From positions 1,120,001 through 1,184,000 of the forward strand of contig NZ_JAQNDL010000003.1 of assembly GCF_028368995.1 (NCBI RefSeq): a stretch of 64,000 nt of DNA, in the 5' to 3' direction. This document shows, one piece after another, positions 16,846 through 40,505 of the stretch. The notes under the pieces were generated by a model, which worked only from the letters and a program-made list of their open reading frames with translations, did no database searches and was not told where the DNA came from. A program made the position numbers and the translations under genes. Numbering within the stretch: position 1 is the first letter of the stretch; every line of letters begins with the position of its first letter. The stretch comes from Nannocystis bainbridge (GTDB lineage: Bacteria > Myxococcota_A > Polyangia > Nannocystales > Nannocystaceae).

Positions 16846-16894
16846 TCCGCGATCGGTGGTTGCGAATCTTCTCTATCGCCGGTACTCTTGCAAC

Positions 16895-17452: not shown

Positions 17453-17472
17453 CCGGCTCGGTGACCGAAGCG

Positions 17473-20711: not shown

Positions 20712-21797
20712 TCACATGATCCCGCCCTCGACCTTGACGCCGAACGTCGCCGTCTTGACCCCCGGCGAGGTCAACGTGGAGCCGCAGAACGGCATCTCCT
20801 GCAGGCACGGGGCCTGGAGGAGCATTTGGTTGAGCTGGACCCCGTCCTGGCCGCGGAAGGCCGTACCGCGGCAGATCATCCCGGTATGATCATAGTCGCC
20901 CTCGCGCACGGTCAGCGACCCGCTGCTCCACGAGTTGATGCCGAGGCTGTCCTGGATGTTGATCAGCCGGCCGGGGGAGGTATATGCGTGGCCGGTCCCG
21001 CAAATGTCGCCGGTGGTCATCTTGAGCGCCCCCGTGTAGCGATTGGAGGTCGCCAGGTCGGTCGGATGATAGCCGAAGCCGAGCACGATCTTGCCGTCCG
21101 CGCCGGTCTCGCAGGCGATGATGGCGCCGTTGGTCGCGGCGTCGATCGTCAGCAGCTCCGCGTCGAGCTGCACGCCGGGCAAGAACACCGAACGGGCCGA
21201 GTTTTCGCCGGCCGAGTTGGCGTAGCACAGCGGGCGCGACTCGTCGGGGAGCTGCGGGGTCCCGTTCGGGGCGTTGGTGGTCAAGGTATAGACGTGCGCC
21301 GTCTTGTTGTGGATCGTCCTCGTCTCGTAAGCGTGCACCCGCACCCAGTAGGTGTCGGTCTCCATCCCGTCCCCCAGCTGGAAGTACAGCTTGCTGCCCA
21401 CGACCTGCGCGCCGGTCTGCGGGAACAGGACGCAGCCATTGCCGAAGCAGACCTGGTAGTGGAGGCGCAGCTCGCCGTCGGCGGTCACGTCGACCAGGCC
21501 CGCGGTATGGTACCCGTTCTGGAACCACCCCTGCGCGCTGGTCAGCGTCGCGGTGCTCGCGTCGCCGTCGAGCGAATTGGCGGCCGGTACGCCGAAGCCG
21601 GTGTTGATGTTGGCGAGCGACCACTCGCCGGCGTAGCTGGTGTTGCCCCAATCGCCGCCCGTGCAGGCCGGCGGACAGGTGCGGAACTCGATCTCGTCGC
21701 CGTCGTCGCCGATGGCCAGAGCGTCTTCGTCGCACGCGGCGAGGGTGAACAGGAAGGGGCAAGCGATGGTGAATCGACGAATGAAAGCGCGAGACAT
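20712..21797 (-). CDS. ADYC-domain lipoprotein 1
   Basis: Lipobox LAAC-DED. C-terminal IACETGADGK..FGYHP..ALKMTTGDICGTGHAYTSPG..I.D..GIN..EGDY...GMIC matches the ADYC-domain pattern (AC..GA.GK...GY.P..RM..ADYCG.G..T..G). Confidence 0.72.
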   Translation of the reverse strand: MSRAFIRRFTIACPFLFTLAACDEDALAIGDDGDEIEFRTCPPACTGGDWGNTSYAGEWSLANINTGFGVPAANSLDGDASTATLTSAQGWFQNGYHTAGLVDVTADGELRLHYQVCFGNGCVLFPQTGAQVVGSKLYFQLGDGMETDTYWVRVHAYETRTIHNKTAHVYTLTTNAPNGTPQLPDESRPLCYANSAGENSARSVFLPGVQLDAELLTIDAATNGAIIACETGADGKIVLGFGYHPTDLATSNRYTGALKMTTGDICGTGHAYTSPGRLINIQDSLGINSWSSGSLTVREGDYDHTGMICRGTAFRGQDGVQLNQMLLQAPCLQEMPFCGSTLTSPGVKTATFGVKVEGGIM

Positions 21798-21836
21798 AGG
21801 ATGTACTTCGGCCGCAGAGTGACCGCTCACTCCTTC

Positions 21837-21864
21837 GAGTGACCGGTGCCCGCGGTTCAATTGC
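21837..21864 (-). promoter_or_regulatory. GCAATTG-N17-ACTC element upstream of ADYC gene 1
   Basis: Minus strand GCAATTG-aaccgcgggcaccggtc-ACTC, preceded by a T-tract. Recurs at 39322 and 42067. Confidence 0.5.
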
Positions 21865-22003
21865 CGGCGCTCAAAAAAATCCGCAATTGCGCCCGCGGCG
21901 GGCGCGAGCGGCGAAAAACGAGGCGGCGCGCGCGAAAACCGCGGCCACGGACGACGAGCATCGACCGCGCGGCATCGAGTAGAATCTCGCGGCTCTCCCC
22001 GCT

Positions 22004-25000
22004 GTGTCCACGGCCGACGACCCCCAGTACGACGCGAGCGGCGCGACGCTGCTCGCCAGCGTGTCGGCCCACGCCTCGACCGAATCCGGCGCGCACGCGG
22101 AGGCGTTGCGCCGCCCGCCGGTCGATGAGGACGCCTACTCCAAGCAGCTCGCCAAGCAGCGGCTGTTCCCGAAGCGGGTCGGTCCGGTCAAGATCGGTCG
22201 GTTCGCGGTGCTCGAGCGGCTCGGCAGCGGAGCGATGGGGATCGTCTATGCGTGTTACGACGACCACCTCGATCGCAAGGTCGCGCTCAAGGTCCTGCGC
22301 AACGACACGGGGCGCGACCCGGGCCTCGCCCGCGTCCGCCTGCTGCGCGAGGCCCAGGCGATGGCCCGCCTCGCGCACCCCAACATCGTCACCGTGTTCG
22401 AGGTCGGCGTCCTCGAAGACGAGGTGTTCGTGGCGATGGAGTTCCTCCGCGGCGTCAGCCTCGACGTCTGGACCGAACAGGTCGAGCGGCCGTGGCAGGA
22501 GGTGCTCGCGGCGTACCTGCAGGCCGGGCGGGGGCTGGCGGCAGCGCACCGCGCGGGGATCATCCACCGCGACTTCAAGCCGCAGAACGTGCTCGTCACC
22601 GCCGACGACGTGGTCAAGGTGCTCGACTTCGGGCTCGCGCGCGCGACCGACGGCCTCACGCACGACGAGGCGCTGCAGAGCCTGAGCTCGGGCACCCACG
22701 ACTCCGGCCGGCACCTGATCCAGCCCTTGACGCGCACCGGCGTGGTCATGGGGACGCCGGCGTATATGTCGCCGGAGCAGCACCTGGCCTTGCCGACCAC
22801 CGGGGCGACCGATCAGTTCAGCTTCTGCGTATCGCTGTATCAGGGCCTTTATGGCCAGTTGCCGTTCCCCGACGAGTCGATGCAGACGCTGCGCCGTGCC
22901 GTGCTGCACGGCGCGATCATCGAGCCGCCGCCGGGGACCCCGGTGCCGGCGCACGTGCTCGGGGCGCTCCGGCGCGGGCTGGCGGTCGCGCCGGCCGAGC
23001 GGTTCGCCACGATGGAGCTGCTGCTCGCCGAGCTGGGGCGCGTCGTCGGCGGGCGCCGGCGCCGGATCGCCGCCGCCGCGGGGGTCGCCTCGCTGGTCGC
23101 CGCCGCGAGCTTCACGACGTCGGCGCTGCTCGCCCCGCCGGCGCTGCCGACCTGTCCCGACGCGCAGGTCGAGCTCGCGGGGATCTGGGACCCCGCGCGC
23201 GCCGAGACGGTCCGCGCCGTCGTGCTCGCGGTCGCCACCCCTTATGCGGCCGAGGCGTGGGCGACCGTCGCGCCGCAGCTCGACGCGTGGGCGACGGCGT
23301 GGGCGGCGATGCGCGAGGAGTCGTGCCACACGCACGCCAGCGGCCGGCAGTCGGACGTCCTGTTCGACCTGCGCATGGCCTGCCTCGACCAGCGGCGGGC
23401 CGGGTTCTCCGGGGTCGTCGAAGCGCTGGCGTCGACCGACGCGGCCGACCTGCCCGCCGCGGTGCAGAGCGTCGCCAGGCTGCCGGCCCTCGACCGCTGC
23501 GCCGACGCTCCGGCGCTCACCGCCGCGATCCCTCCGCCGGACGACCCGCACACGCGCGCGCGCGTGCAAGGGCTACGCGAGACGCTGGCGCGCGCCGAGG
23601 CGCAGGAGACCGCCGGCCGCTACGCGCAAGGGCTCGAGCTGACCCGCGCGACGCTGGCGGACGCCGAGGCGCTCGGCTACCCGCCGCTGGTCTCCGAGGC
23701 GCTGCTGCGCCTCGGCAGCCTCGAGATGGAGGCCGGCGAGCTCGCGCCGGCCGACGCCGCCCTCGACCGCGCGCTGTGGACCGCCCTGGAGTTCGACCAC
23801 GCGCCGGTGGCCGCGCAGGCGAGCTCGAAGCGAGTGTTCCTGCGCGCGGCCCGGATGGGCCAGCCCACCGCGGCGCAGGGCGAGCTGTCGCTGGTGCGCG
23901 CGCTCAACGCCCGCGTCGCCGACGACGTCGAGCTGTACGGCGAGTTCCTCAACAACATCGGGGTCGTGCACGCCGTGGCAGGGGCCTCGGAGGACGCGCA
24001 GAAGGCGTTCCAGGCGGCGCTCGACCTGCGCGAGCGCCACGGCCGGGAGCGCACGCTCAAGCACGTCGAGACGCTCTACAACCTCGGCAGGCTCGCCGAG
24101 GACGGCGGCAGGCACAGCGCGACGGTGCCGCTGCTGCGCCGCGCGAGCGCGCTGTCGCGGGCGCTGCTCGGGGAGCGGCACCCGGTGCACCTGCGCCACG
24201 CGCTCGGGCTGGTCCGTGGCTTGCTCGCGGTCGGCCGACCGGCGGAGGCGCGGGCGCTGCTCGACGCGCTCACGCCGGGCCTGGCGGGCGTGAGCGGGCA
24301 GGCGCGGGCCCTCGCGCACCGGCTGCAGGGCGACCTGGCGCTCGCCGAGCGCGACCTCGCACGGGCCCGGGCGAGCTACGAGGCGGCGCTGCAGGCCTGC
24401 CCGGAGCATTCGGACTGCGCCGACCAGGTGCTGGCCGGCCTCGGCCAGGCGCTCGCGCTGGCGGGTGACGAGGCGGCGGTGCGCAGCTACTACGGCGCGG
24501 CGCTGGCGGCGATCGAGCAGGCGTCCGGGGCCGATTCGCCCCGGTTCACGGTGGCGCGGGTGCACTTCGGGAGCGCGCTCGGCGAGCTCGGACAGCTCGC
24601 CGAGGCGAGCGCACACATCTCCCCGGCGGTCGCCGGCTGCGACGGCGCCGAGGGGTTCCGCGAGGTGGTCCTGTGCGCGTGGGCGCAGCGCTCGCTCGGC
24701 GCGGTGCAGCGACGGGCCGGCGCGCTCCCGGCCGCCGAGGCGTCGCTCCGTGCGGCGCTGGCCGGCTACGCAGCGATGGTCCCGGCGGACAGCTTCGAGC
24801 TCGCCGACGTCGAGCGCCGACTCGGCGAACTCGCGCTCGCGCAGGACCGCCCGGGTGACGCTATCGCGCCGCTGCGCCGCGCCGAATCGATCTACGCCGC
24901 GCTCGCCGAGCCTGCTCACGGCCCGCTCGCGCAGACCCGCCTCGCCCTCGCGGCCGCCCTCACTGGCGACGAGGCCCGTGGGTTCGCCGAGCAGGCGCTC

Positions 25001-25081
25001 GCGGCGTTCGTCGCCAGCGGCCCCATGTTCGCGGCGGAGCAGGCGGAGGCCCGCGCTCGCGTGGAAGCGCTGCCGCGATGA
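22004..25081 (+). CDS. Membrane Ser/Thr protein kinase with 4-Cys domain and TPR repeats (kinase 1)
   Basis: GSGAMGIV, VALK, HRDFKPQN, DFG, GTPAYMSPEQ; TM segment after RRRR; then TPR-like helices (LNNIGVV, LYNLGRL). Confidence 0.93.
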   Translation: MSTADDPQYDASGATLLASVSAHASTESGAHAEALRRPPVDEDAYSKQLAKQRLFPKRVGPVKIGRFAVLERLGSGAMGIVYACYDDHLDRKVALKVLRNDTGRDPGLARVRLLREAQAMARLAHPNIVTVFEVGVLEDEVFVAMEFLRGVSLDVWTEQVERPWQEVLAAYLQAGRGLAAAHRAGIIHRDFKPQNVLVTADDVVKVLDFGLARATDGLTHDEALQSLSSGTHDSGRHLIQPLTRTGVVMGTPAYMSPEQHLALPTTGATDQFSFCVSLYQGLYGQLPFPDESMQTLRRAVLHGAIIEPPPGTPVPAHVLGALRRGLAVAPAERFATMELLLAELGRVVGGRRRRIAAAAGVASLVAAASFTTSALLAPPALPTCPDAQVELAGIWDPARAETVRAVVLAVATPYAAEAWATVAPQLDAWATAWAAMREESCHTHASGRQSDVLFDLRMACLDQRRAGFSGVVEALASTDAADLPAAVQSVARLPALDRCADAPALTAAIPPPDDPHTRARVQGLRETLARAEAQETAGRYAQGLELTRATLADAEALGYPPLVSEALLRLGSLEMEAGELAPADAALDRALWTALEFDHAPVAAQASSKRVFLRAARMGQPTAAQGELSLVRALNARVADDVELYGEFLNNIGVVHAVAGASEDAQKAFQAALDLRERHGRERTLKHVETLYNLGRLAEDGGRHSATVPLLRRASALSRALLGERHPVHLRHALGLVRGLLAVGRPAEARALLDALTPGLAGVSGQARALAHRLQGDLALAERDLARARASYEAALQACPEHSDCADQVLAGLGQALALAGDEAAVRSYYGAALAAIEQASGADSPRFTVARVHFGSALGELGQLAEASAHISPAVAGCDGAEGFREVVLCAWAQRSLGAVQRRAGALPAAEASLRAALAGYAAMVPADSFELADVERRLGELALAQDRPGDAIAPLRRAESIYAALAEPAHGPLAQTRLALAAALTGDEARGFAEQALAAFVASGPMFAAEQAEARARVEALPR

Positions 25082-25154
25082 GCATGCGCCCGATGCGGAC
25101 GGCGCCGAAGCCGGTCCGGTGAGGCGCGCGCGGCAGTGGCCTACGCTCGCCGGG

Positions 25155-26735
25155 ATGAGACCGCGGCCCGCGAGACTGCTGGTGATGCTCCTCGGCCTGC
25201 TGGTGATCGTGGGCTGCGGCGGGATGCGACCGTCGCCCCTCACGCTGCGGCACGCGCTGCGGGTCCTCGATCGCAAGCTCGAGCCGGCCACGATCACGGC
25301 GATCCGCAGCGGCGACCTCGAGCCGACAGACATGCACTTCGGCCTCGGCTCCGCGCTGCGAGGCACCTGGGGCCTGTGGAGTGGAAAGTCGGCGCTGGCG
25401 CGGTGGTTCCGGGTCCGCAAGATCTACCACCCGGAGGACATGTCCGGGGTCGTGCTCGAGGCGTACGCACGCCACGTCCGCGGCGAGCCGCTCGCCGTGC
25501 CCGCGCTGCTGAAGCGTGTCAGGGAGGGCGAGCGCGAGCAGGAGGCGCTCTATGCAACGGAGCTCGCGGAAGGGCCTCGGCGGGCGGCGCGGCTCGAAAA
25601 GCTTCGCGCCGGCTGGGTCTACGAGGACCACGAAGTGCAGACGATCGCGCTGCCGCGACACCAGGTCGATACGCTGCTCGTGAAGATCGAGCGTGTCGGT
25701 CCCGGCTTCGTGCTGTTCACCGGCGGCGGCGAGCGCGAGGGCCAGTGGTACGCCGACGCGTACCAGCTCACCGATCCCGCGACGTCGCTGCGTCCGGCCG
25801 CGCGGGCGAGCTGTCCGCAGGTCCACGACGTCGTGACGCTGGCAGGACGCACGACGTGGCTGTGTCGGTCCGCGGACGCGTGGAGCCTCCTGGCCGACTC
25901 CGATGATTCGTCGAAGTCGATCCCGATCGACGCCGACGCGTTACGACTCGGCACGAGCGCGGGCGAGCTGTTCCTGTTCGATCGACATTCGCTATATTTC
26001 CGCGCGGGCGACGGATGGCGGCCCGTGCATGTCTTCGGCCCCGGGGCCGCAGGCGTGCGTACCACGACCTTCGGTCACGAGAAGGCTCTGACGGCGCTGC
26101 CGTTCGGCGGGGACACGCCGCGCGGCCTCGGAAGTCGCTTGTACTTTCCGAGCGTCGCGGCCTCGGATGCGCACGTGCTCGACCTCTCGGATCCGCCGGA
26201 GCTCCACTCCTTCTACTGGACGTGGGGCCGGGAGCAATTCGGATCGCAGGCTCTCTACGTCCACGATCTCGCGCCCGCTGTCGCTGGCGGCCTGTGGATC
26301 GCCATGAGCGACTACGAGGATCTCGAGAACCTCGTCAGGCTTCACGAGCCGGCCACGGCCCAGGTGCCGATCGTCAAGAGCAGCGTCGACGGCCCGCTGG
26401 TCGCAGACCACGGCAACGTGAATGCTCCCGAGCGGTCCGAGTCGACGCGGGCGCGGCTGATCCCCGCGACGGCCGTGTTCGACGACGGCGAGGCGCTCTG
26501 GCTCGCCGGGATGCATGGCATCGCCGTGGTGCGCCAGGGGCGGCTCGCGCCGGTGGTGCGATTCGTGGTGCCCGACCCGAGGGTGTACGAATCCGTGCCG
26601 CACCGGCTGGCGCGTTTCCCCGACGGCTCACTGCTCGTGGGGCTACGCGGATACGCGCCCGTACTGCTGCGGCCCGACGGCGACGGAGGCTTCACGGCGC
26701 GGGCGCTGGCGTACGGCGACGACTCACTGCAATGA
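25155..26735 (+). CDS. Lipoprotein with N-terminal DUF6794-like domain
   Basis: Lipobox IVGC; MHFGLGSALRGTWGLWSG..LARWF..IYHPEDMS.VVL motif; beta-rich C-terminus. Confidence 0.6.
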   Translation: MRPRPARLLVMLLGLLVIVGCGGMRPSPLTLRHALRVLDRKLEPATITAIRSGDLEPTDMHFGLGSALRGTWGLWSGKSALARWFRVRKIYHPEDMSGVVLEAYARHVRGEPLAVPALLKRVREGEREQEALYATELAEGPRRAARLEKLRAGWVYEDHEVQTIALPRHQVDTLLVKIERVGPGFVLFTGGGEREGQWYADAYQLTDPATSLRPAARASCPQVHDVVTLAGRTTWLCRSADAWSLLADSDDSSKSIPIDADALRLGTSAGELFLFDRHSLYFRAGDGWRPVHVFGPGAAGVRTTTFGHEKALTALPFGGDTPRGLGSRLYFPSVAASDAHVLDLSDPPELHSFYWTWGREQFGSQALYVHDLAPAVAGGLWIAMSDYEDLENLVRLHEPATAQVPIVKSSVDGPLVADHGNVNAPERSESTRARLIPATAVFDDGEALWLAGMHGIAVVRQGRLAPVVRFVVPDPRVYESVPHRLARFPDGSLLVGLRGYAPVLLRPDGDGGFTARALAYGDDSLQ

Positions 26736-26926
26736 TTCGAGCGGCCGCAGGACGGCCGGTGCTCCGTGCGTCGTGACCGTCGCGTCACGGCGACGCCGCG
26801 ACCACGTAAAGCCGGCTCCACGGAGAAAGAGCCGCGGCCGCGCCGATCCCAACGAGAGATTCTCTTCGCCCGAGCGGCTCGAACCGGGCTCGGTTATCAT
26901 GCCCTCTCGCCCCCACGACCCTCGAC

Positions 26927-28540
26927 ATGACCACGCCGAATCCGCAACGCCGCCCCCCTCGCTCCCTCCCGGACCGGATGCGCGCCGGACCGGTGGTGCT
27001 CTACTTCCGCGGCGCATCGATCGCGCGCGAGGCAGAGGCGCGCGGATTCGTGACCGCGCTCGGTGGTGATGGCGCCCGTGCGGCGCGCTTCGTCGACGAC
27101 GGCGAGCACGACAACAGCGGGCGGGACGCGATCGTCGCGGCCATGCGGGCGGGCGCGGTGGGTGTGATCGTGTCGCCGAGCTATCAGGATCTCGTGTACG
27201 GGTTCTTCGTCGACGAGACGATCCGCCCGTTGGTCGAAGAGCACGACGTGGCCATCGCGGACCTCTTCGACCCGGAGCTGCTGAGCCCCGACTTCGATCG
27301 GGTGCACGACCTGTGGGACGGTGACGAGGACGCCTGGGAGCCGCTGCTCGAGGGGCTCGCCAAGCGCGTGCTCGGCGATGCGGCGCCCGCGTCGTTCTGC
27401 GAGGAGCTCGTGGCATTGAGCGACGACCTCGCGGCGTGGTCGCAGCGTGCAGGTGATGTCGCTGGCAGGATGCGCTCCGAGTACGTCTACTCGGGCCTGC
27501 GCTCCGGCGAGCACCTCACGACCTGGGTCCGCAACGGCGTCCTCGACTCGTTGCCCGCCGACGACCCGACGGTGCTCGCGGTACGCCTCGACGCGCTCGA
27601 GCGACGGCCGGACCGGGAGGTCGTCGAGCACGGGCGTGCCTTGCTGATCGACCTGCGCGCGCACGACGATCTGGCGCTGCTGCACCGCGCGCTGCTCGTG
27701 CACGCGGCGCGCTGCCTCGAGGAGGGCCTGTGGGCCGAGGCGGAGGCGACGGCCGAGGAGGCGCGACCGTTCGAGCGCGACCCCGAGCTCCCGCGTCGCG
27801 CCGAGCGCTTGAGCCTGGCGGCGCGCTTTGGCCGTGGTGAGATCACGTCGGCGCTGGCCGGCCTCGACGCCCTGTTCCTCGCGGAGCGCGAGGCCGAGAG
27901 CACGGCGGGCGCGGTGCTCCACGCGAAGCGCTCCTTCATGGATCTCGACGAGCACGAGGCGGTGCTTCGCGAGCTCGCGCTCTCGATCCAGGTCGCCCGC
28001 GAGCCGAGCAAGCTCGTCGAGCCGCTCACGAGGCTCTGTGGGCTCATCCAGGACAAAGCGGACGCCGATCGGCTGCGCAATTGGCTGGCCGCGCAGAAGC
28101 CGGCCGCAGTGAAGCCACCCGTCGACTTCTGGGGGGAGTACGGCCGCATTACGCGCGAGAAGGCAGCGGCGCAGGCTCCCGCGGCGAAGAAGGCCGCGCC
28201 CAAGAAGGCCACCTCGAAGAAGGCCGTGTCCAAGAAGGCCGCGGCGAAGAAGGCCGCGACGACGAAGGCCGCGCCCAAGAAGGCCACCTCGAAGAAAGCC
28301 GTGTCCAAGAAGGCCGCGGCGAAGAAGGCCGCGACGACGAAGGCCGCCTCCAAGGAGGCCACCTCCAAGAAGGCCGCGACGAAGAAGGCCGCCTCCAAGA
28401 CGGCGGCGTCGAAGCAGGCCGCGCCCAAGAAGGCCGCCTTCAAGAAGGCCGCCTCGAAGAAGGCAACCTCCAAGAAGGCAACCTCGAAGAAGGCCGCCTC
28501 GAAGAAGGCCGCATCCAAGAAGACGCCCGCGAAGACGTAG
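26927..28540 (+). CDS. Hypothetical protein with histone H1-like Lys/Ala C-terminal tail
   Basis: Acidic, helical N-terminal ~420 aa, then ~115 aa of KKAA(S/P/T) pentapeptides. Confidence 0.75.
   Translation: MTTPNPQRRPPRSLPDRMRAGPVVLYFRGASIAREAEARGFVTALGGDGARAARFVDDGEHDNSGRDAIVAAMRAGAVGVIVSPSYQDLVYGFFVDETIRPLVEEHDVAIADLFDPELLSPDFDRVHDLWDGDEDAWEPLLEGLAKRVLGDAAPASFCEELVALSDDLAAWSQRAGDVAGRMRSEYVYSGLRSGEHLTTWVRNGVLDSLPADDPTVLAVRLDALERRPDREVVEHGRALLIDLRAHDDLALLHRALLVHAARCLEEGLWAEAEATAEEARPFERDPELPRRAERLSLAARFGRGEITSALAGLDALFLAEREAESTAGAVLHAKRSFMDLDEHEAVLRELALSIQVAREPSKLVEPLTRLCGLIQDKADADRLRNWLAAQKPAAVKPPVDFWGEYGRITREKAAAQAPAAKKAAPKKATSKKAVSKKAAAKKAATTKAAPKKATSKKAVSKKAAAKKAATTKAASKEATSKKAATKKAASKTAASKQAAPKKAAFKKAASKKATSKKATSKKAASKKAASKKTPAKT
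28187..28537 (+). repeat. 15-bp tandem repeat (AAGAAGGCCGCCTCG-like) coding KKAAS
   Basis: Directly visible; includes a near-perfect 75-bp duplication (from ~28190 and ~28265). Confidence 0.9.
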
Positions 28541-28647
28541 GCGAGCGCCGAGCCGATGGCGAGCGCCGTGCTGCGCCGGGCCGTGCGCGCCGAGCATCGC
28601 GCGCGCATCTTTCCATCGCGCAACCGCCTCGCGCGAGGCCTCATCGT

Positions 28648-30507: not shown

Positions 30508-30599
30508 CGGCGCATTATGCCAGCCCGCCGGGCGCCGATCACAGCGCCGCGCCCGGCCCTTGCTCGACACGCGTACGGGACTTCGGTATCGATCGCCGC

Positions 30600-31040: not shown

Positions 31041-31064
31041 CCCACTCTTTGCCAGGCCCGCCCC

Positions 31065-32897
31065 ATGAGCCAAAATTTCCACAACCTCCACGTCCATGCG
31101 CCGACGCAGCGGCAGCGCGAGCGGGTCGTCCGGGCCGTGCTCGCGTACGCGAAACAGGCGGGGTACGAACGGATCGCGCGGACCCGCGGTGCCGATCGGG
31201 TGATCCGCCTCGGCGGCAAGTCGCCCTGGCTCTCGCTCGAGGACGACGGCTACGAGGCCGCGGCGCTCGCCCAGGTGGTGTCGAAGGCGACGAAGCTGCC
31301 CGTCCTCGAGGCGTACTGTGAAGCGAGCGCGATCGTCCGGCTCGGCCTCCATGCGGATGGCAAGCCCGTGGGCGCGTGGGCCCGCGAGGGCGAGCGCAGG
31401 CCGGCGAAGAAGCACGTCGAGCCGCTGCTCGTGAAGGGCACGCCGACCGAGCTGGCGAAAGCGTTCGCCGACGGGCTCATCCAGATCTTCCCCGAGACGG
31501 CGCTCGCCGTCGCCGCGGAGCGGTTCGGCCTGTCCGTCGCGCAAATGTTCGGAGAGCGAGCGCTGCGCGGCACCACGATCGCGCTGCGGCGAAAGCAGGC
31601 CGCATGGCAGCCGCGTGACAAGACCGGCGACCCCGCGTTGCTCGTCGACTGGGGCAGCAACCGCGGCTGGGGCGTGCAGCACCTCGTCTTCGAGGGCGCG
31701 GTCTGCAAGCAATACCTGGAGGTCCGCTCCGACGGAGGCCCCGGGCGCGGCCTGACGATCCAGCTCTCGGGCAGCGCGATCGCGGAGGGCTTCATCGAGC
31801 TGCTCTCGTGCAAGAGCGACAGGCTCGAGCTCGTGCCCGCGGGGCCGCACGCCTGGAGCGACCCGAAGCTTGTGATCCCGCCGGGGCTCGTCGAGGAGCC
31901 CGACACGTTCTCGATGAGCCGGAGAGAAGCCGAGCGGGCCCGCGCCCTCGCCGGCAAGCGCAGTTGGCCCCTCCATATCGAGTACCGCACCCTGAAAGAA
32001 GGCAAGTGCGAGCTCGTCGCGGAGCTCGCGAGCGGTGGCGGGCGCACGTCCAACAGCCTCGAGCTCATGGTGCTATGGAAGCCGTGGCGACCGAGCCTCA
32101 CGCTCGGCAGCATCGACGACTACGCCCTCTTCGCCATGCATCGCAGCGAGCACGTCAGCGCGCACATCACCCTGCGTGGCTCGCTCGCCGAAGCGTGGGC
32201 GTGGGCCAGCCGGCACGTCGAGGCGTGGCGCACGGCCCACGGCGACGGGAACCTCCGCATCGAGCGTGATGGTGAGGTCGTCGTGCACGCGCGCGAGGAA
32301 GCGGGCGCCCCTCCCCTCGACCGAGTCCCTGAATTCATGCCCGGCCCGACGTCGCCGTTTCAGGTCGCCGGCGCGACCTACCTGTTCGGCACCTTCGGCT
32401 ACGCGCCATGGGCGATGGACCCTCGGGATCAGCTCGTCGTCCAGCTCATGCTCGCCGCGTACGACCGCGTGAACGATCACGCCCCCGACATCGCCCGGCT
32501 CACGGCGATCTGCGACGAGGCGATCCGCTGCGGCGCCGCCTACTCGGCGCTCCTCGAGCAGCATCAAAGCCGTCCGAACGACACGACGCGCTGGGAGGAC
32601 ATCACGCTCGGCGGGAACGATGCGCCGCTCAAGCTCGCGGCCTGGCACGAGACGCACATCCGAGGGATCGACCGCCGGATCTGGCTGTCGGCCGGACACG
32701 CCGCGCGGCTCGATCGCGCCAGGCTGCCCGACTACATCACGGTGACCGAGCTCGGCGGCGGCGTCCGCCTGGAGATGCCCGACGATCGCAGGCGCAGCGA
32801 GCTCGAGCCGCTCATCGCGGCCCTCGGCGCGCTCGTCCCGTGCGCGCCCGAGGCCGATCGATGGGCCGCCGAGCGCGCCTCCGAGCCGCAGCCCTGA
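31065..32897 (+). CDS. Hypothetical protein (610 aa)
   Basis: Long frame with natural composition; no motif recognised with confidence. Confidence 0.7.
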   Translation: MSQNFHNLHVHAPTQRQRERVVRAVLAYAKQAGYERIARTRGADRVIRLGGKSPWLSLEDDGYEAAALAQVVSKATKLPVLEAYCEASAIVRLGLHADGKPVGAWAREGERRPAKKHVEPLLVKGTPTELAKAFADGLIQIFPETALAVAAERFGLSVAQMFGERALRGTTIALRRKQAAWQPRDKTGDPALLVDWGSNRGWGVQHLVFEGAVCKQYLEVRSDGGPGRGLTIQLSGSAIAEGFIELLSCKSDRLELVPAGPHAWSDPKLVIPPGLVEEPDTFSMSRREAERARALAGKRSWPLHIEYRTLKEGKCELVAELASGGGRTSNSLELMVLWKPWRPSLTLGSIDDYALFAMHRSEHVSAHITLRGSLAEAWAWASRHVEAWRTAHGDGNLRIERDGEVVVHAREEAGAPPLDRVPEFMPGPTSPFQVAGATYLFGTFGYAPWAMDPRDQLVVQLMLAAYDRVNDHAPDIARLTAICDEAIRCGAAYSALLEQHQSRPNDTTRWEDITLGGNDAPLKLAAWHETHIRGIDRRIWLSAGHAARLDRARLPDYITVTELGGGVRLEMPDDRRRSELEPLIAALGALVPCAPEADRWAAERASEPQP

Positions 32898-33360
32898 ATA
32901 CGCCGAGATGACGACGTCGAGGCGCCGGGGACGGAGGAGCCCGGCCGATCGCGGGACTGCAATTCGCAGGGCCTGCTCGTCGCGCTCGCGTTCGCAATGG
33001 TGGGTCGACGGCGAACTCGGAACGAGCACGTATCTCCGCCACGCCTTCGAGCATTCCTCCGTCATTGATCATTCCCTGCGAAGGCCACGGCCAAAGATGG
33101 CCCGCTTGATCATTGAGAGACGCGAATCCCCAAGCGCGACTCGCCAGCGTCCGGCATCGATGGGCCGGCCCTGGCTGAGGCAGCCGCGGATCCCCGCGGG
33201 CACGTCGCGAGCTCCGCGGAAGCGCGCGGGCGTCGGCGCGCCGTGCCTGCCTGCGCGCTGGCGCGCCGCGGCGATGCGCGAAGAAAGCCGCGATCGACGG
33301 GACCCGCGGAGGTCAAGGACACGCGGCGTCCGAACGCGGGGCGCTCGAAAGGAAAATCCG

Positions 33361-34899
33361 ATGTCTGAAGTGATCCTCTCCAACCCGAGCAGCATCCAGG
33401 ACGAGGGACTGCGCCAGTTCGCCGACGCCGTGGCCGACGAGGTCATCCTCGCCGCGCACAAGGCCGTGGCCCACCACGCCGAGCCGAAGCGCTTCTTGCT
33501 CCCGACCGACCGACAGGCCCTCGAGCACAAGTTCGTCGCTCACCTGCGGGCCAAGCCGCTCGAGATCCAGAAGCGCGCCGCCGAGCGGGTGATGACGAGC
33601 ATCCTCGAGAAGAAGCTCGCGGGCCTCGCCGCGCCCGAATTCGCCGCCGCCAGGGCGCAGGTGGGCGCCAGGGCGCTGATGCTGCGCACGCTCGGCAGCG
33701 GCGACCTGCTGCTGCGCAAGGCCATGACACCCACCCAGCCGACCGCGCCCGCGCCGGTGCCCGTGAGCGCCCCCGAGCGGCTGGTGTTCCACCTCGTCTC
33801 CGTCAAGTGCATCGACGAGACCGATGGCTTCCTCGGCACCGAGTCGGGCACCGACGAGATCGCGCTGTCCGGCGCGATGGTCGACGCCGCCGGCAACACC
33901 GTCGCGATCCCGAAGATCGGCGTCGGCGGCTTCGGCGGGGACAGGGCCACCCGCACCTACGACCCGCCGCTCCTGCTCGGGTCGGTCGACTTCACCAAGG
34001 GCTCGCTGCCCCGGTCCTTCAACCTGCTCCTGACCCTGATCGAGGTCGACAACGGCGACCTGCCGCAGCTCGTCCAGACGATCTACGACGAGGTGAGCAA
34101 GCGGGTCCGCGAGGCCGCGAGCAAGGCCGCACAAGGGCTCGGCGGGTCGCTCGCCGACGCGGTCACCGGCGCGATCATGCAGGCCCTCGATCGGGTGTTC
34201 AAGTTCTTCAAGGATGTATGGGAGGACGACGTGTTCCCCGGCGCGGTCACCACCTTCACGTTCGCCGACGCGGGCGCCAGCTTCGGCGGTGCCGCCACGA
34301 GCGGGCCGCGATCGGTCGACTTCAAGGGCCACGGCGGCCACTACCGCGTGTGGTACAGCGCCACCCTCGAGCGGGCCGGCGACGCGGCGCTCCGCAACAA
34401 GGCGGTCGTGTACGAGCACGCGAACTTCGGCGGCCGCAGCCTGACGCTCGGGGTCGGCCGCCACGACGTCGCCAAGATCCAGGAGCTCGGCAACGACGCC
34501 GTCAGCTCGCTCAAGGTCGGCCCCGGGGTCCGCGTGATCCTCTACGAGCACGCCGGCTTCGGCGGCCCGGCGCGGGTCTACTCGGGGCCCGTCGCCCAGC
34601 TGAGCGACTTCAACGACCGCGTCTCGTCGGTGGTCATCGAGCCGATCGCCGTCACCCTGTTCCAGCACGGCGAGTACGGCGGCAGCGCGCAGAGCTTCCC
34701 GCTCGGTCGCCACGACGTCACCAGCCTCAAGCTCGGCAACGACCAGGCGTCCTCGCTGCTGGTGCCGCCCGGCTTCAAGGTCACCCTGTTCGAGAACAAG
34801 GGCTTCTCCGGGCGCAAGAAGGTCTTCCAGGCCGACGCTAACTACGTGGGCGACGACTTCAACGACATCGTCTCGAGCCTGGTCGTCGAGCTCGCGTGA
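33361..34899 (+). CDS. Beta/gamma-crystallin (Protein S-like) domain protein with uncharacterised N-terminal region
   Basis: Four Greek-key motifs: YEHANFGG..NDAVSSLKV, YEHAGFGG..NDRVSSVVI, FQHGEYGG..NDQASSLLV, FENKGFSG..NDIVSSLVV. ATG 33361 follows AAGGAA. Confidence 0.85.
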   Translation: MSEVILSNPSSIQDEGLRQFADAVADEVILAAHKAVAHHAEPKRFLLPTDRQALEHKFVAHLRAKPLEIQKRAAERVMTSILEKKLAGLAAPEFAAARAQVGARALMLRTLGSGDLLLRKAMTPTQPTAPAPVPVSAPERLVFHLVSVKCIDETDGFLGTESGTDEIALSGAMVDAAGNTVAIPKIGVGGFGGDRATRTYDPPLLLGSVDFTKGSLPRSFNLLLTLIEVDNGDLPQLVQTIYDEVSKRVREAASKAAQGLGGSLADAVTGAIMQALDRVFKFFKDVWEDDVFPGAVTTFTFADAGASFGGAATSGPRSVDFKGHGGHYRVWYSATLERAGDAALRNKAVVYEHANFGGRSLTLGVGRHDVAKIQELGNDAVSSLKVGPGVRVILYEHAGFGGPARVYSGPVAQLSDFNDRVSSVVIEPIAVTLFQHGEYGGSAQSFPLGRHDVTSLKLGNDQASSLLVPPGFKVTLFENKGFSGRKKVFQADANYVGDDFNDIVSSLVVELA

Positions 34900-35143
34900 A
34901 CTCGCGGCCGCGTCGCGACCTCGCGGTCGCGGCGCGGCTGCCTCGCGCTCATCCCGTCGGCTGGGGTCGGCTCGCGCGCTGCTGCGCAGGACCTCCGGCG
35001 GATCGCCGACAGGTCGTCCACCCGCGGCGCCGCGCCGACCCCAGCGAGCGGCGCAATTCCGCCGCTTCATCGACCTCGCCGGCCCGTCTTGCTCCCGCAT
35101 CTCGGTGCAGGGCCGGCGCCGCGATCTGGGATAGACTCGCGGC

Positions 35144-35785
35144 GTGCTTGACGACGACGTCGGACTGCTCGACGCCTGGAAGGCGGGCGACCGCAAGGCC
35201 GGGGCCGCGCTGTTCGAGCGGCACTACCCGAGCGTGTTGCGGTTCTTCCACAACAAGGCCGGGGAGCAGGGCAAGGACCTGATCCAGCGGACCTTCCTCC
35301 GCTGCCTCGAGGCGCGCGACCGGATCTTGCCTGGATCGAGCTTTCGCGCCTATCTGTTCGGCGTCGCCCGTAATGTGCTGCTCGAGCATTTCCGCGGCGT
35401 CAAGCGCGACGGCCAGCGCTTCGACGGCATGGTGACCACGATCCAGGACGTCTCGCCGCACCCGACCCCGAGCTCGATGCTGTCGCGCAAGCGCGAGGTC
35501 CGGCTCCTGCTCGCCGCTCTGCGACGGATCCCCATCGAGCTGCAGATGGCGCTCGAGCTGTTCTACTGGGAGGACATGTCCGCCGGCGAGATCGCCGGCG
35601 TGTTCGACCTGCCCGAGGGCACCATTCGCACCCGCCTGCGTCGCGCTCGCCAGCTGCTCGAGCGCGAGCTCGAGGCGATCGCCGCCTCGCCCGCGGAATT
35701 TCACAGCACCCTCACGGGCCTCGCCGACTGGGCCAAGCACGTGCGTGACGAGCTCGCGGGCGACAGAGGCGCGAGGGCGACATGA
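35144..35785 (+). CDS. ECF-type RNA polymerase sigma factor
   Basis: Region 2 (LFERHYPSVLRFF..DLIQRTFL..FRAYLFGVARN) and region 4 (LELFYWEDMSAGEIA..LPEGTIRTRLRRAR). GTG lies 6 nt after TAGACT, suggesting a leaderless transcript. Confidence 0.9.
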   Translation: MLDDDVGLLDAWKAGDRKAGAALFERHYPSVLRFFHNKAGEQGKDLIQRTFLRCLEARDRILPGSSFRAYLFGVARNVLLEHFRGVKRDGQRFDGMVTTIQDVSPHPTPSSMLSRKREVRLLLAALRRIPIELQMALELFYWEDMSAGEIAGVFDLPEGTIRTRLRRARQLLERELEAIAASPAEFHSTLTGLADWAKHVRDELAGDRGARAT

Positions 35786-36029
35786 CCCGAAGGACATCCG
35801 CTCGCCGGACCTCGGGCTGCCCATCCGTGCCGTGAACTTGCGCGGCGGGCGAATAGGCGCGACCGGGCTGCGCCGGCGTCGCGGCCGCGGAGCGTCGAAC
35901 CTGCCCTCGCGGCCATCCTTCCGGCGGCCGCAGATTACCTGCCCTCCGAGACATATTCTCGAGAGTCCGGCTGACGGCGAGCATGTCCATAACATGTCTT
36001 AAGGAACATGTACTATGATTCGCACACGC

Positions 36030-39000
36030 TCAATTCTCGAGCCGCGCGAGCCATGCGTCGACCGCCGCGCGCTCGGCCGCGAAGCCCTCGCCGAGCGCCG
36101 CGTACGCGGCCGCCACCTCGCGGGCCGACGCCACGGCCTCGGCCGGCGAGCGGCGCGCGCGTGCCTGGGCCAGGTGGAAGCGGACCGCCACGAAATCGGG
36201 ATGATCGTCATCGAACGTCGCCGCGTGCCGCTCGCGGGCGATCTGCAGCGCCGCCTCGGCCTCGGCCGTGCGGCCGCGGGCCAGCTCGAGCTCGCCCAGG
36301 GTCGCGAAGATCCCCGCGAGGTACGGGCTGTTCGCCTGGTGCGCGAGGAAGCCGTCGCGCGCGGCCACGAGCTCGCGCTCGGCCTCGGCCAGCGATCCAG
36401 CAGCCAGCAGCGCGCGCGCCAGGTGGCTGCGGACGATCGCCGCGAACGCAGAGTCGGCGCCGAACCCGGTGACGAACCCCGCCAGCGCCTCGCGCTGCCG
36501 GGCGACCGCCTCGTCGAGGCGACCGAGCCCCAGGAGCGCGTCCCCGAGGGCGCTCACCGCCACCAGCCGCGCCACTGGCTCCTCGCCCGCGCGGTCGATC
36601 GAGGCGCGCAGGTGTTCCAGCCCCGCGTCGACCCGCCCGAGCCCGATCGACGCCGCGCCGCGCATGCGTTCGGCGTCGGCCGCCGGGCCCGGGTGCGACG
36701 GGTGCGAAGCCACCGCGCTCGCCAGCGCGTCCGCCTCCGCGAAGCGGCGGTACTTGAGGTCGACCTCGACCGCCAGCAGTTGCGCCGACTGCACGTCGGG
36801 CGCCGCGGGCCCGAAGGTCGCAAGCAGCTGCGGGATCATCCGCGCCAGCATCGTCCGCACCTGCCCGGTTTCGCCGAGCTCCCAGCGGGCCTGCGCCAGC
36901 ATCATCCGCATCTGCCCCGCGATCGGGTGGTCCTCGCCGAGGCCGGCCTCGATCGCCGCCAGACCGGCGCCGAAGCGGGCCGCCGCGGTCGCCTGATCGC
37001 CGGCCTGCGCCGCCAGCCAGCCCTCATTGAACACCGTGATCGCGGCCGCCTGCGTCAGCCCGGCCGCGGCGGCCACCTCGGCCGCGCGGCCGAACGACGC
37101 GCGCGCCCCCTCGAGGTCGCCGCTGGCGAAGCGCACGATCGCCACGTTGAGCGCCCACAGCCACCGCGTCGGCGGCGGGTCGCCGGCGCGATCGATCAGC
37201 GCGTCGGCGACCTCGGCCCCGGCGAGCCCGAGCTCGGGGGCGCCGAGCAGCCGCCCGCGCACGAAGATCTGGCGCGCCGCGGCCTCGGCGGCGATGGCGT
37301 CGGCCCGCCCACGCAGGGCCGCGTGGAGCGCCGTCGCCAGCGAACCAGCCGCCTGCTCGGCCTCGCGGAGCTCCTGCTGCGCGCGCCCGAGCGCCAGCGC
37401 GGCCTCGGCGGTCAGCGGTTCGTGGCCCAGGCTCGCCGCCGCGCTCGTCACCGCCGCTGCGCCGGCCCGGGCCGCCGCGTAATGCCCGGTGAGTTGGTCC
37501 GCGGCCACGCGCTCGAGCGCCAGCTGCTGCGCGCGCACGGCCCGGGCGAGGCCTGTCTCTTCGGGCAGGGGAACCGTCGCCGTCAGGGCCTGCGCGTCGC
37601 CGCAGCCGGCCACCACGGCGAGGCCGTCGACCGCCGCCACAGCGTGGATCACCGTGTCGGCGTCGGCCGCCGCGAAGGCCCCCGCGAGCGCGTCGAGCCC
37701 GGCCAACCGGCGATCGAGGCACGCCATGCGCAGATCGAGGAGCCGGGCCGACTGATGACCTGACTGATGGGACAGGCACGCTTCGGCGCGCATCGCCGCC
37801 CACGCCTCGGCGTGGCGGTCGAGCCGCGGCGCGACCGCGGCCCACGTCGTCGCGCCCAGGGTCGGGATCGCCGCCGTCAGCCCCGCGCGCGCGGTCGCCC
37901 GCCGCGGCTCGCTCCACACCGCCGCCAGCTCGTCGGCCGCGCCGGTGCACGGCGCCTGACCTGACTCTTCGGACATGTGTGCCAGGGCGAAGCCGCCGCC
38001 GACCAGCAGCGCCGCCAACCCTGCCCCCGCGGCCAGGTTCCGCCGCCGTCGCTGGCGGACGCGGCTCAACTCGGTCAGCAGCGCCGCCATCGACGGCCAG
38101 CGGTCGGCTGGCCTGCGGGACATGCCCCGAAGGACAACTCGTTGCACCCACCGCGGCGCCATCCCCTCGGGCGGCGGCCGCACGCGGGCCGCGAGCACCT
38201 CGTCGACCAGCGCCGGCAGCGTGGCCCCGGCGAACGGCAGGCGGCCGAACAGCCCCTCGTAGAGCGCCACGCAGAACGAGTATTGATCGCTGCGTTCGTC
38301 GGCGACGCGGCCCTCGTGCTGCTCTGGAGCCATGTACGCCGGCGTGCCCATCACCGCCCCGGCCACCGTCATGCCCGCGTCGAGCAGCGCCCGCGGCGGC
38401 GCCTCGGCCTCGGGCAGCGCGGCCGCGGCGGTCGAGCGCGCCAGCCCGAAGTCGAGCACCGTGATCGCGCCGTCGTCGCCGCGCATCACGTTCTGCGGCT
38501 TGAAGTCGCGGTGCACCACCCCGGCCGCGTGCGCGGCGGCCAGCCCCGCGCCGGCCGCGGCGAACGCCGCCACCACGTCCCGCCAGCCGGGTCGACCGGC
38601 CAGCCACGCGTCGAGGCTCTGGCCCTTCACGAACGCCATCGCCACGTAGATCGAGTCGGCGTGTTCGCCGACCTCGTGCACCGTGACGAGGTTCGGGTGA
38701 CTCACGCGGGCCATCGCCTGCGCCTCGCGGAGCAGGCGCATGCGCGCCGCGGAGTCGTTGCCGACGGTGTCGCGGCGCAGCAGCTTGACCGCGATCTTGC
38801 GGTCGAGCTGGGCGTCGTAGGCTGCGTACACCACTCCCATCCCGCCCTCGCCGAGGCGCTCGATCACCGTGAAGCGGCCGATCCGCGCCGCGCTCACCGG
38901 CGCGCCGAACAGCTCCGCCATGATGGCGCCCTTGATCTGGTCCGACTCGACCCCGTCGATGTCGGGGCTCGGCAGCGGCCGCGAGCGTCGCAGCTCGGCC

Positions 39001-39200
39001 GAGCGTGGCGCCTCCGTCGCCAGCGAGCCGACCCACGTCGGCGACGGCTCGGTCCGGCCCAGGGTCGCGTCTGTCTCGCGCAGCGACGGCTCGGTCGCCG
39101 CCGGGATCGGGCGCGTCGAGGGCTCGCATTCGCGGGCCCGCGCTGCGCTCGCGGGGCCCATCGCCGTGTCGCGGAGCGGCGGCTCGGGGTCCTTCATCAT
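36030..39200 (-). CDS. Membrane Ser/Thr protein kinase with 4-Cys domain and TPR repeats (kinase 2)
   Basis: GEGGMGVV, IAVK, HRDFKPQN, DFG, GTPAYMAPEQ; TM after RRRR; LRMACLD domain; TPR-like helices. Paralog of 22004-25081. Confidence 0.93.
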   Translation of the reverse strand: MMKDPEPPLRDTAMGPASAARARECEPSTRPIPAATEPSLRETDATLGRTEPSPTWVGSLATEAPRSAELRRSRPLPSPDIDGVESDQIKGAIMAELFGAPVSAARIGRFTVIERLGEGGMGVVYAAYDAQLDRKIAVKLLRRDTVGNDSAARMRLLREAQAMARVSHPNLVTVHEVGEHADSIYVAMAFVKGQSLDAWLAGRPGWRDVVAAFAAAGAGLAAAHAAGVVHRDFKPQNVMRGDDGAITVLDFGLARSTAAAALPEAEAPPRALLDAGMTVAGAVMGTPAYMAPEQHEGRVADERSDQYSFCVALYEGLFGRLPFAGATLPALVDEVLAARVRPPPEGMAPRWVQRVVLRGMSRRPADRWPSMAALLTELSRVRQRRRRNLAAGAGLAALLVGGGFALAHMSEESGQAPCTGAADELAAVWSEPRRATARAGLTAAIPTLGATTWAAVAPRLDRHAEAWAAMRAEACLSHQSGHQSARLLDLRMACLDRRLAGLDALAGAFAAADADTVIHAVAAVDGLAVVAGCGDAQALTATVPLPEETGLARAVRAQQLALERVAADQLTGHYAAARAGAAAVTSAAASLGHEPLTAEAALALGRAQQELREAEQAAGSLATALHAALRGRADAIAAEAAARQIFVRGRLLGAPELGLAGAEVADALIDRAGDPPPTRWLWALNVAIVRFASGDLEGARASFGRAAEVAAAAGLTQAAAITVFNEGWLAAQAGDQATAAARFGAGLAAIEAGLGEDHPIAGQMRMMLAQARWELGETGQVRTMLARMIPQLLATFGPAAPDVQSAQLLAVEVDLKYRRFAEADALASAVASHPSHPGPAADAERMRGAASIGLGRVDAGLEHLRASIDRAGEEPVARLVAVSALGDALLGLGRLDEAVARQREALAGFVTGFGADSAFAAIVRSHLARALLAAGSLAEAERELVAARDGFLAHQANSPYLAGIFATLGELELARGRTAEAEAALQIARERHAATFDDDHPDFVAVRFHLAQARARRSPAEAVASAREVAAAYAALGEGFAAERAAVDAWLARLEN

Positions 39201-39321
39201 CGCCGTGGCGGCCAGCTTAACACGCCCCCTCGGCCGACCAGGGCGCCTTCGCTACGATTCACGAGCGGCGCGTCGCTGGCGAACCGCGGGCGATCGCGCC
39301 CGCGAAAATTTTCATGCGATC

Positions 39322-39350
39322 GCAATTGCCGGGACGCCCACGATCAACTC
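39322..39350 (+). promoter_or_regulatory. GCAATTG-N18-ACTC element upstream of ADYC gene 2
   Basis: GCAATTG-ccgggacgcccacgatca-ACTC, preceded by AAAATTTT, ending 36 nt before the ATG. Confidence 0.5.
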
Positions 39351-39386
39351 ATCGGTGCGAGGGGCCACGGCTCCTCGGAGACGACC

Positions 39387-40505
39387 ATGACGAACGCCCG
39401 CCGCCTCCTCCCGTTGCTCCTCCTCCCGCTCGTGATCGCGCCCGCCTGCGACGAAGACCCCGACACCGACCCGAACTTCGGCGAGCCGCTGCCCGAGGAC
39501 GTGTTCGAGTTCCGCGGCTGGGGCTACTCGGGCAGCACCGTCCAGCTCAACACCAACATCCTCAACGGAGCCTCGATCGACACCGTGCGCTTCGGCTTCC
39601 CGAGCAACTACGGCGCCCAGGTCGCATGGATCTACAGCGCGGCCCTCCAGGAGTTCCTCGACATCGAGACCGTCACCGTCATCGACGGCGGCGTCCAGGG
39701 TCATACCGAGACTGGCACGTTCGCCAGCACGCTGAGCTTCGACGGCTCGATCTGGTACTTCGCGGGCGCTGGCGTCGACGCCTACGCGGTCCTCGAGGAC
39801 GTGCGCTACGCCTCCGAGGTCGGGCTCGCCCACGAGGGTTCGAAGCTGATGACCAACCTCGACCCGAATCGCTTCGTCTACAAGTGGACCGCCCCGAACG
39901 CCCCCGCCGCCGGCACCAGGGTCGATCCGAAGACCGGATGGGGCGGCACGTTCGACGGCCTTCACACCTGCGCCACCGACGACAAGGGCGGCGTATGGTC
40001 GGTGATGTACCGCGGCATGCTCGTCGACGAGGCCACCGGCGACGTCACGAGCGCCTCCTGGGCCCCGCAGCAATACGCCTACATCGCCTGTCTCAGCGGG
40101 CGGATCGGCAAGACCTCGCTGTGGGGCTACGCGCCCGACAACCCGTCGGCCAACCGCCCCGACCTCACCCTCGCCGAATTCGAGGGCGCGCACCGCATGG
40201 TCGGCGCCGAGTACTGCGGCGACGGCCGCTCGTACACCCGCCCTGGCGAGGCCGTCACGCTGCGCGACAAGTGGAGCATCAACCAGCACCAGGGCGAAGC
40301 CACCAGCGAAGAGGCGGTGTGGACCGTGAACGGCGCCTTCTGCCTCGGCACCCCCCGCTGGGAGGCCTACAGCAGCGCGTCTTCCGTGGTGTGCAACAAC
40401 GGCAAGGTCATCCCGACCTGCACCACCGCCCCCGCCGCGGCGAACGCTTACAACGGCAACTCGACCGCCAAGTGGTGGGCCCGCAACGCGTTCTTCCCCG
40501 ATTGA
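39387..40505 (+). CDS. ADYC-domain lipoprotein 2
   Basis: Lipobox APAC-DED; IACLSGRIGKTSLWGYAP..AHRMVGAEYCGDGRSYTRPG..EAVWTVNGAFCL. Confidence 0.8.
   Translation: MTNARRLLPLLLLPLVIAPACDEDPDTDPNFGEPLPEDVFEFRGWGYSGSTVQLNTNILNGASIDTVRFGFPSNYGAQVAWIYSAALQEFLDIETVTVIDGGVQGHTETGTFASTLSFDGSIWYFAGAGVDAYAVLEDVRYASEVGLAHEGSKLMTNLDPNRFVYKWTAPNAPAAGTRVDPKTGWGGTFDGLHTCATDDKGGVWSVMYRGMLVDEATGDVTSASWAPQQYAYIACLSGRIGKTSLWGYAPDNPSANRPDLTLAEFEGAHRMVGAEYCGDGRSYTRPGEAVTLRDKWSINQHQGEATSEEAVWTVNGAFCLGTPRWEAYSSASSVVCNNGKVIPTCTTAPAAANAYNGNSTAKWWARNAFFPD

Follow-up and report, generated by a model that had tools for sequence, protein, structure and literature searches.

A candidate signalling module of TPR receptor kinases, ADYC lipoproteins and a kinase-associated ECF sigma factor in Nannocystis bainbridge

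The closest described relatives of the system considered here are switches in which a serine/threonine kinase, rather than an anti-sigma factor, controls an extracytoplasmic function (ECF) sigma factor. PknT of Vibrio parahaemolyticus activates the ECF43 member EcfP, which has a degenerate DAED motif and an STTA phospho-motif in region sigma2.2; the accessible part of that report has no ADYC partner (PMC8999054). The single-pass Hanks kinase PknS of Xanthomonas citri has periplasmic tetratricopeptide repeats (TPRs) and adjoins another ECF43 member, EcfK, which lacks an anti-sigma factor. According to the portion of the PknS paper available, Ser/Thr phosphorylation of the EcfK linker by PknS is required, the periplasmic domain modulates the kinase and the PknS ligand is unknown; no lipoprotein partner is described in that portion, the word 'lipoprotein' occurring 0 times (PMC13147305). 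A third group, ECF283, is predicted and uncharacterised, and is described as proteobacterial, with a transmembrane (TM) kinase neighbour, a Ser/Thr-rich linker end and no anti-sigma factor; the accessible description includes no ADYC or lipoprotein partner (PMC7826278). Its representative in a table of the review PMC8999054 is actinobacterial, which conflicts with the supplement of PMC7826278. Here we analyse a stretch of 64,000 nucleotides from Nannocystis bainbridge (the window; contig NZ_JAQNDL010000003.1, positions 1,120,001 to 1,184,000), in which two TPR receptor kinases, K1 and K2, are each encoded beside a lipoprotein with an ADYC domain, A1 and A2, and in which an ECF sigma gene lies next to K2. 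We give a probability of roughly one half to the reading that the ADYC lipoprotein acts outside the cytoplasm as the cognate partner of its TPR receptor, and that kinase, ECF and ADYC gene are joined in a feedback loop.

Exported partners encoded beside their receptors, often within the receptor's regulon, are familiar from the lipoprotein-gated NlpE/Cpx, RcsF/IgaA and LpqB/MtrB pathways and from autoinducing TPR-receptor quorum cassettes. Signalling there runs through histidine kinases or through TPR regulators in the cytoplasm, whereas the module in the window combines a Hanks kinase with an ECF and is present as about 18 paralogous channels per genome.

A sequence-only reading of the window had described two divergent ADYC/kinase pairs, and their identities and layout are borne out. 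A1 (20712-21797, minus strand, 361 aa) and K1 (22004-25081, plus strand, 1025 aa) are 206 bp apart from start to start, and K2 (36030-39200, minus strand, 1056 aa) and A2 (39387-40505, plus strand, 372 aa) are 186 bp apart. In a search with hidden Markov models both lipoproteins match PF20032 above its gathering cut-off of 27 bits (A1, E 3e-18, 66.9 bits; A2, E 7e-27, 95 bits). The two kinases share one architecture, with Pkinase and TPR_12 matches, a single TM segment and four invariant Cys between TM segment and TPRs. The ECF gene (35144-35785, plus strand, 213 aa) converges on K2 and is without an adjacent anti-sigma gene, since its neighbours are K2 and, directly upstream, a gene for a beta/gamma-crystallin-domain protein (33361-34899, plus strand). 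An independent codon-model gene call recovers all five genes. K1 and K2 are 38% identical, and A1 and A2 can be aligned over 95 residues only, at 36%; A1/A2 and K1/K2 fall in different sub-branches of their respective trees, in accord with the earlier suggestion of old paralogy rather than recent duplication.

The linkage of the two gene families extends well beyond the window. The genome (~11 Mb, ~71% GC) holds about 236-243 kinases, 64 of them with the four-Cys domain, together with 106 ECFs, 1,218 predicted lipoproteins and 24 ADYC matches, 23 of which are over the cut-off. A four-Cys kinase directly adjoins 17/24 ADYC genes (19/24 for any kinase), as compared with 15/1,199 other predicted lipoproteins and 122/8,077 other genes, an adjacency far beyond chance. 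Lipoproteins with a lipobox-acidic-xR start were considered as kinase partners in general and rejected, only 1/47 non-ADYC ones adjoining a four-Cys kinase. Six of the 17 adjacent pairs are divergent, six are kinase-first, three are ADYC-first and two are convergent. The head-to-head layout, proposed earlier as a conserved feature, is thus rejected as a defining one (6/17), and with four orientations among the pairs it is the partnership that is conserved. Three ADYC genes of this genome have no kinase nearby.

ADYC is present in 10/10 genomes of the same genus and in 18/301 genomes of the phylum. A kinase lies <=700 bp from the ADYC open reading frame (ORF) in 21/33 cases in genome G010, 7/9 in G009, 9/13 in other genera of the family and 20/27 outside the family, counts that leave out ORFs with <3.5 kb of flank (0, 1, 1 and 5, respectively). 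In the sampled genomes, too, the linkage holds across four gene orientations, and kinase, ADYC and ECF genes also occur together, in a different order, in another family; the association is therefore non-random both in this genome and across the phylum sample. Among A2 orthologues with enough flank, five keep the divergent kinase, and three of these five (L270, L272 and L273) keep the convergent ECF as well. A close orthologue of A1 was found in one of nine relatives searched; an A1 orthologue of 73% identity is present in the relative G003, where the kinase consists of N- and C-terminal remnants (L239:5541-6111) and the ADYC gene and its upstream motif persist.

K1 and K2 have the catalytic Lys, HRD and DFG of Hanks kinases and are not among the 11/64 four-Cys kinases that fail this motif check. 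A hydropathy scan places the single TM segment behind an Arg cluster, from residue 355 in K1 and 388 in K2, a topology that would put the TPR superhelix outside the inner membrane. The ectodomain spans ~640 aa and includes the four-Cys domain, which sets both kinases apart from PknS as described in the accessible text (PMC13147305). This domain is juxtamembrane and helical, and none of its four Cys varies across a 43-row alignment of ectodomains. The K2 ectodomain model is an all-helical TPR superhelix (predicted local distance difference test, pLDDT, 95.6), and structure matches agree with TPR.

In the ectodomain tree, 18/19 kinases with an ADYC gene no more than two genes away belong to a single clade of 21 among the 64 ectodomains, with a Shimodaira-Hasegawa-like approximate likelihood ratio support of 96, and the ADYC-neighbour label changes 5 times as compared with 16.5 when shuffled (quick IQ-TREE). 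With one method throughout (FastTree), the label changes 5 times on the ectodomain, 9 times on the kinase domain, 11 times on the juxtamembrane Cys domain and 5-6 times on TPR segments. A pair of Asn residues is characteristic of the ADYC-linked ectodomains (17/18 and 16/18, versus 12% and 9% of 43 others). Peptide-binding TPR grooves are lined by Asn ladders. Three kinases of the ADYC-linked clade have no ADYC neighbour (C4:434767, C3:128711 and C2:909679 of this genome, G000). At two further loci (C2:2675501-2682000 and C3:862683-869087) an ADYC gene is followed by two tandem clade kinases, one of which fails the catalytic-motif check, and it is possible that such tandem kinases form a heterodimeric receptor.

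ADYC proteins also co-vary with the receptors beside which they are encoded. Over 83 adjacent pairs, ADYC distances correlate with those of the ectodomain at r 0.52 and with those of the kinase domain at r 0.34. The corresponding Mantel correlations are 0.43 and 0.23 for 17 paralogue pairs of this genome and 0.58 and 0.28 for 18 pairs of G010, and partial correlations among paralogues are 0.38-0.54 for the ectodomain versus 0.04-0.16 for the kinase domain. Scanned in segments of 140 columns, co-variation is highest at K2 residues 628-835, in the middle of the TPRs; across 48 dereplicated pairs this region gives r 0.51, the kinase domain 0.30 and the juxtamembrane Cys domain 0.13-0.16. The same holds for 24 divergent pairs (mid-TPR r 0.59 versus kinase 0.44), in which, of all parts of the kinase, the TPR region lies at the greatest distance from the ADYC gene. 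On the ADYC side, co-variation with the TPRs is strongest where the ADYC core begins (r 0.53) and lower in the N-terminus (0.17-0.33), and the peptide that follows a conserved Arg is for this reason not favoured as the main specificity determinant. At two-kinase loci the kinase within 700 bp was used as the pair, probably the non-cognate one where the locus is ECF-divergent. ADYC tracks the middle TPRs better than the kinase domain, its partners form a dedicated ectodomain clade, and the earlier proposal of cognate co-phylogeny is supported. Complex prediction for the K2 ectodomain with the post-Arg residues of A2 was uninformative, with a score of 0.00 in two runs made without folded controls.

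In the ECF tree the window member falls in a clade with 31 paralogous sequences; a kinase adjoins 24 of them and lies within two genes of 28; the figures for the 75 other ECFs are 10 and 15. The proposal of a kinase-associated sigma factor is upheld by these counts, and that of an EcfP type is not, because the DAED position is without Ser/Thr. The sigma2.2 of the window ECF reads EQGKDLIQ, with QGKD replacing DAED, and most of its sub-branch likewise has no Ser/Thr at this position; EcfP has STTA here, and EcfK a sigma2.2 threonine (PMC8999054; PMC13147305). Of the ECF43 traits, the window ECF therefore has the kinase neighbour without anti-sigma factor and lacks the STTA-type motif. Its sigma2-sigma4 linker ends in a Ser/Thr-Pro-rich stretch, VSPHPTPSS, which is conserved across the clade, and by analogy with EcfK the phosphosites are likely to lie in this linker. 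In its TM kinase neighbour, its Ser/Thr-rich linker end and the absence of an adjacent anti-sigma gene, the window ECF resembles ECF283 as published, a likeness judged from the group's description; among the NCBIfam matches listed, the generic TIGR02937 alone is above cut-off.

Passage of the signal from kinase to ECF, also part of the sequence-only reading, agrees with the kinase-associated clade, with an ECF arm that is confined to one sub-branch and to a minority of ADYC genes. Of the four ECFs close to an ADYC gene, three fall in this sub-branch, together with the window ECF and one orphan. K1/A1, with the same upstream motif but no sigma factor of its own, is probably served in trans by the window ECF or a close paralogue. 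The orphan (C3:1777273, plus strand), closest to the window ECF and without a kinase within 21 kb, could be the one that serves it. A second, distant ECF family is found directly beside four-Cys kinases at C1:462532, C1:489567, C1:694241, C1:1892249 and C3:494584.

Among words upstream of ADYC genes, CAATTG shows the strongest enrichment (6/24). Upstream of both A1 (21840-21864, minus strand, GCAATTG-N12-CGGTCA) and A2 (39322-39346, plus strand, GCAATTG-N12-CGATCA), an AT-rich tract precedes the pattern GCAATTG-N12-CG(A/G)TCA, which lies ~65 bases before the start and has an ECF-like spacing. In its strict form the pattern occurs at 7/8,141 genes, four of them ADYC, a circular result in so far as the pattern was drawn from these very genes; as a pattern match rather than a weight matrix, it sets a lower bound of seven targets. 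Strict boxes at spacers of 8-11 or 13-16 occur at no ADYC gene. The same boxes and spacing recur in independent genomes, including the A1 orthologue of G003, with one change, and a GAAATTG variant, and related sites are present at A2-orthologous loci, three of which (L132, L271 and L273) have a second copy that faces the kinase when read on the opposite strand. The shorter [GC]CAATTG lies upstream of 16/39 ADYC genes with a clade ECF nearby, compared with 5/127 without one and 158/8,141 genes of the genome. A sigma-54 reading was rejected, its pattern being found at 5/76 TPR-class ADYC genes, 11/46 of the nSTAND class described below and 202/8,141 background genes. The promoter predicted for ECF283, CCTT (-35) and AG (-10), was derived from ECF upstream regions and differs from the ADYC motif (PMC7826278). 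We regard the motif as a candidate promoter that would make ADYC an output as well. A non-ADYC lipoprotein (C3:1984557-1986065, minus strand) has the full motif, equally far from its start, and is a possible further target.

A1 is laid out as a lipobox Cys-Asp, an acidic tether, a conserved Arg (EFR), a beta-rich N-domain and the ADYC domain. The tether ending in Arg is seen in 54/67 TPR-class ADYC lipoproteins versus 135/1,201 control lipoproteins, and Asp at position +2 in 39/67 versus 107/1,201. The Arg, residue 43 of A2, is invariant in 25 aligned relatives and is a probable processing site; it sits in the least confident stretch of the A2 model, a stretch that is probably flexible. As a whole the model is confident (pLDDT 93.5, predicted TM-score 0.91). 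No solved fold corresponds to it in a Foldseek search of the PDB at E<=0.001, and a wide VIA-align search gave nothing significant (best Z 3.5, root-mean-square deviation 3.6, 78 aligned). A profile search with ADYC returned only pentapeptide-repeat proteins, through repeat-bearing members, and the ESM Atlas only ADYC clusters and unnamed myxobacterial clusters. Five Cys are invariant among 90 ADYC sequences, and two more nearly so. Asn-Gly pentapeptide repeats follow the Arg in 36/45 nSTAND-class and 6/65 TPR-class ADYC proteins.

The other neighbours of ADYC genes are mostly proteins of kinase-nSTAND1-TM-FGE architecture, all three domains being found in 6/8 scanned and the TM segment in 3/3 checked; both such genes of this genome (2/2) immediately precede an ADYC gene. 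In the tree of ADYC proteins the two partner classes, TPR and nSTAND1, separate with 5 changes over 110 labelled genes. One exported fold with two unrelated single-pass receptors would fit a ligand or co-receptor. The kinase-nSTAND1-FGS architecture is shared with NTPase-FGS systems, which are described as intracellular sensors, nSTAND1 and FGS being predicted counter-invader modules; the second ADYC class differs in having a TM segment between NTPase and FGS, and the accessible text makes no mention of ADYC or lipoproteins (PMC8195603). K1 and K2 differ from both in lacking nSTAND and FGS domains and belong to the TPR class.

In the circuit that we propose, the single-pass Hanks kinase would expose its TPR superhelix outside the inner membrane, and the cognate ADYC lipoprotein would engage the middle repeats and gate the kinase, acting either as its co-receptor or as a ligand on a tether. 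The kinase would then phosphorylate the ECF283-like sigma factor in its sigma2-sigma4 linker, as EcfK is phosphorylated, and the sigma factor would read GCAATTG-N12-CG(A/G)TCA and transcribe the ADYC gene, in some relatives also the kinase gene, closing the loop. The earlier alternative of ligand or co-receptor versus output is narrowed towards ADYC being partner and output at once. A more specific version, to which we give rather little weight, is that ADYC is a pro-ligand: cleaved after the conserved Arg, it would release a disulfide-stabilised signal that binds its own TPR kinase in the same or a neighbouring cell and induces itself through the ECF.

Several observations weigh against this circuit. 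An adjacent kinase is missing from 5/24 ADYC genes of this genome, 45/64 four-Cys kinases have no ADYC neighbour, and an ADYC gene lies three genes away or nearer for only 4/31 clade ECFs, leaving 27/31 without one. At 17 kinase-less ADYC loci, proteobacterial ones included, no recurring receptor was found among 41 flanking ORFs scanned, and in G003 the A1 orthologue is intact beside a kinase reduced to a relic by internal deletion. The strict pattern, derived from this genome, is found at 4/24 ADYC genes only and within the window faces neither K1 nor K2; at eight loci an ECF sub-branch with a different sigma4 helix stands beside ADYC without an upstream CAATT. The kinase domain co-varies with ADYC too (r 0.23-0.44), and related genomes are not independent. 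Because of that correlation, co-inheritance explains part of the co-variation, but it does not explain a signal that peaks in the middle TPRs. Binding, phosphorylation and transcription are inferred from sequences and models.

The strongest competitor, which we hold to be possible though clearly less probable than the proposed circuit, is that ADYC is an output only: kinase and ECF would sense an outside cue and induce an ADYC protein with an unrelated envelope job, the co-phylogeny being due to a long history of joint inheritance, or to one external molecule that both receptor and ADYC handle while never touching each other. In its favour, the promoter-like motif is tied to the ECF sub-branch, other four-Cys kinases also stand beside varied exported proteins, ADYC outlives its kinase in G003 and occurs elsewhere without kinases, and published accounts give the EcfP and EcfK systems ordinary regulons as their output. 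The output-only account predicts neither a dedicated ectodomain clade nor a mid-TPR peak with a drop in the kinase-proximal Cys domain, nor the tight linkage of the 13/17 kinase-adjacent ADYC genes for which a clade ECF three genes away or nearer is missing. We find it rather unlikely that ADYC is a bait or envelope sentinel and that the receptor reports when a competitor, predator or phage cleaves or removes it. The predicted counter-invader modules of the second partner class (PMC8195603) and the response of PknS/EcfK to amoebae (PMC13147305) are suggestive here, as are the fast diversification of the family, seen in the scarcity of close A1 orthologues, and the placing of the Arg in a low-confidence, probably flexible stretch. 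Yet no defence effector genes were seen by eye among the direct neighbours of the 64 kinases, the motif indicates ADYC itself as the main target, and such a guard would be a special case of the cognate-partner reading. Chance adjacency or recent duplication might be suspected where kinases and lipoproteins are so numerous, and is very improbable: the control counts, with ~50-fold enrichment over other lipoproteins, refute it, and linkage in other families, the four orientations and the deep divergence of the two window units speak against it as well.

Other genes of the window are noted here. A trypsin-family protein (16888-18324, plus strand; PF00089, E 4e-41), 2.4 kb from A1, is probably inactive because its catalytic-Ser motif reads DACLREDGAP, which we take to depart from that of active trypsins. 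Directly downstream of A1 lies a Cys-rich exported protein (19578-20357, minus strand) with a Ser/Thr/Gly-rich linker, a tail that is presumably MYXO-CTERM-like and no Pfam or NCBIfam match. The product of 26978-28540 (plus strand) carries a long Lys/Ala-rich, histone H1-like tail, with PF07382 above cut-off. Downstream of A2 is a Thr-rich exported protein (40742-41863, plus strand) with a weak match resembling a metal ion-dependent adhesion site. The first part of a putative biosynthetic cluster occupies 42593-64000, with a methyltransferase (domain match) first, followed, as read from ORF translations, by acyl-CoA dehydrogenase-like, adenylation-like and very long ORFs.

The kinase-ECF core of the module is a known kind of switch, represented by EcfP/PknT, EcfK/PknS and the predicted ECF283. 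What is new is the dedicated receptor clade, the co-evolving exported partner of unmatched fold and the candidate promoter that makes this partner an output; our literature searches returned nothing on the ADYC domain or on receptor kinase-ADYC pairing. The ligands of PknS-like TPR kinases, ECF283-type sigma factors, and the function and fold of ADYC are all unassigned so far. Should the pro-ligand version be true, some 18 fast-diversifying ligand/receptor-kinase channels per genome would serve signalling between cells or among kin, comparable in bacteria to the ligand/receptor-kinase pairs of animals and plants, and an unrelated STAND-FGE receptor would have adopted the same ligand fold. The module offers a candidate cognate partner, a co-varying receptor region (K2 ~628-835), candidate phosphosites and a candidate promoter. 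With these, matched and mismatched pairs from one genome allow a direct test of what switches on myxobacterial receptor kinases, of which there are hundreds.

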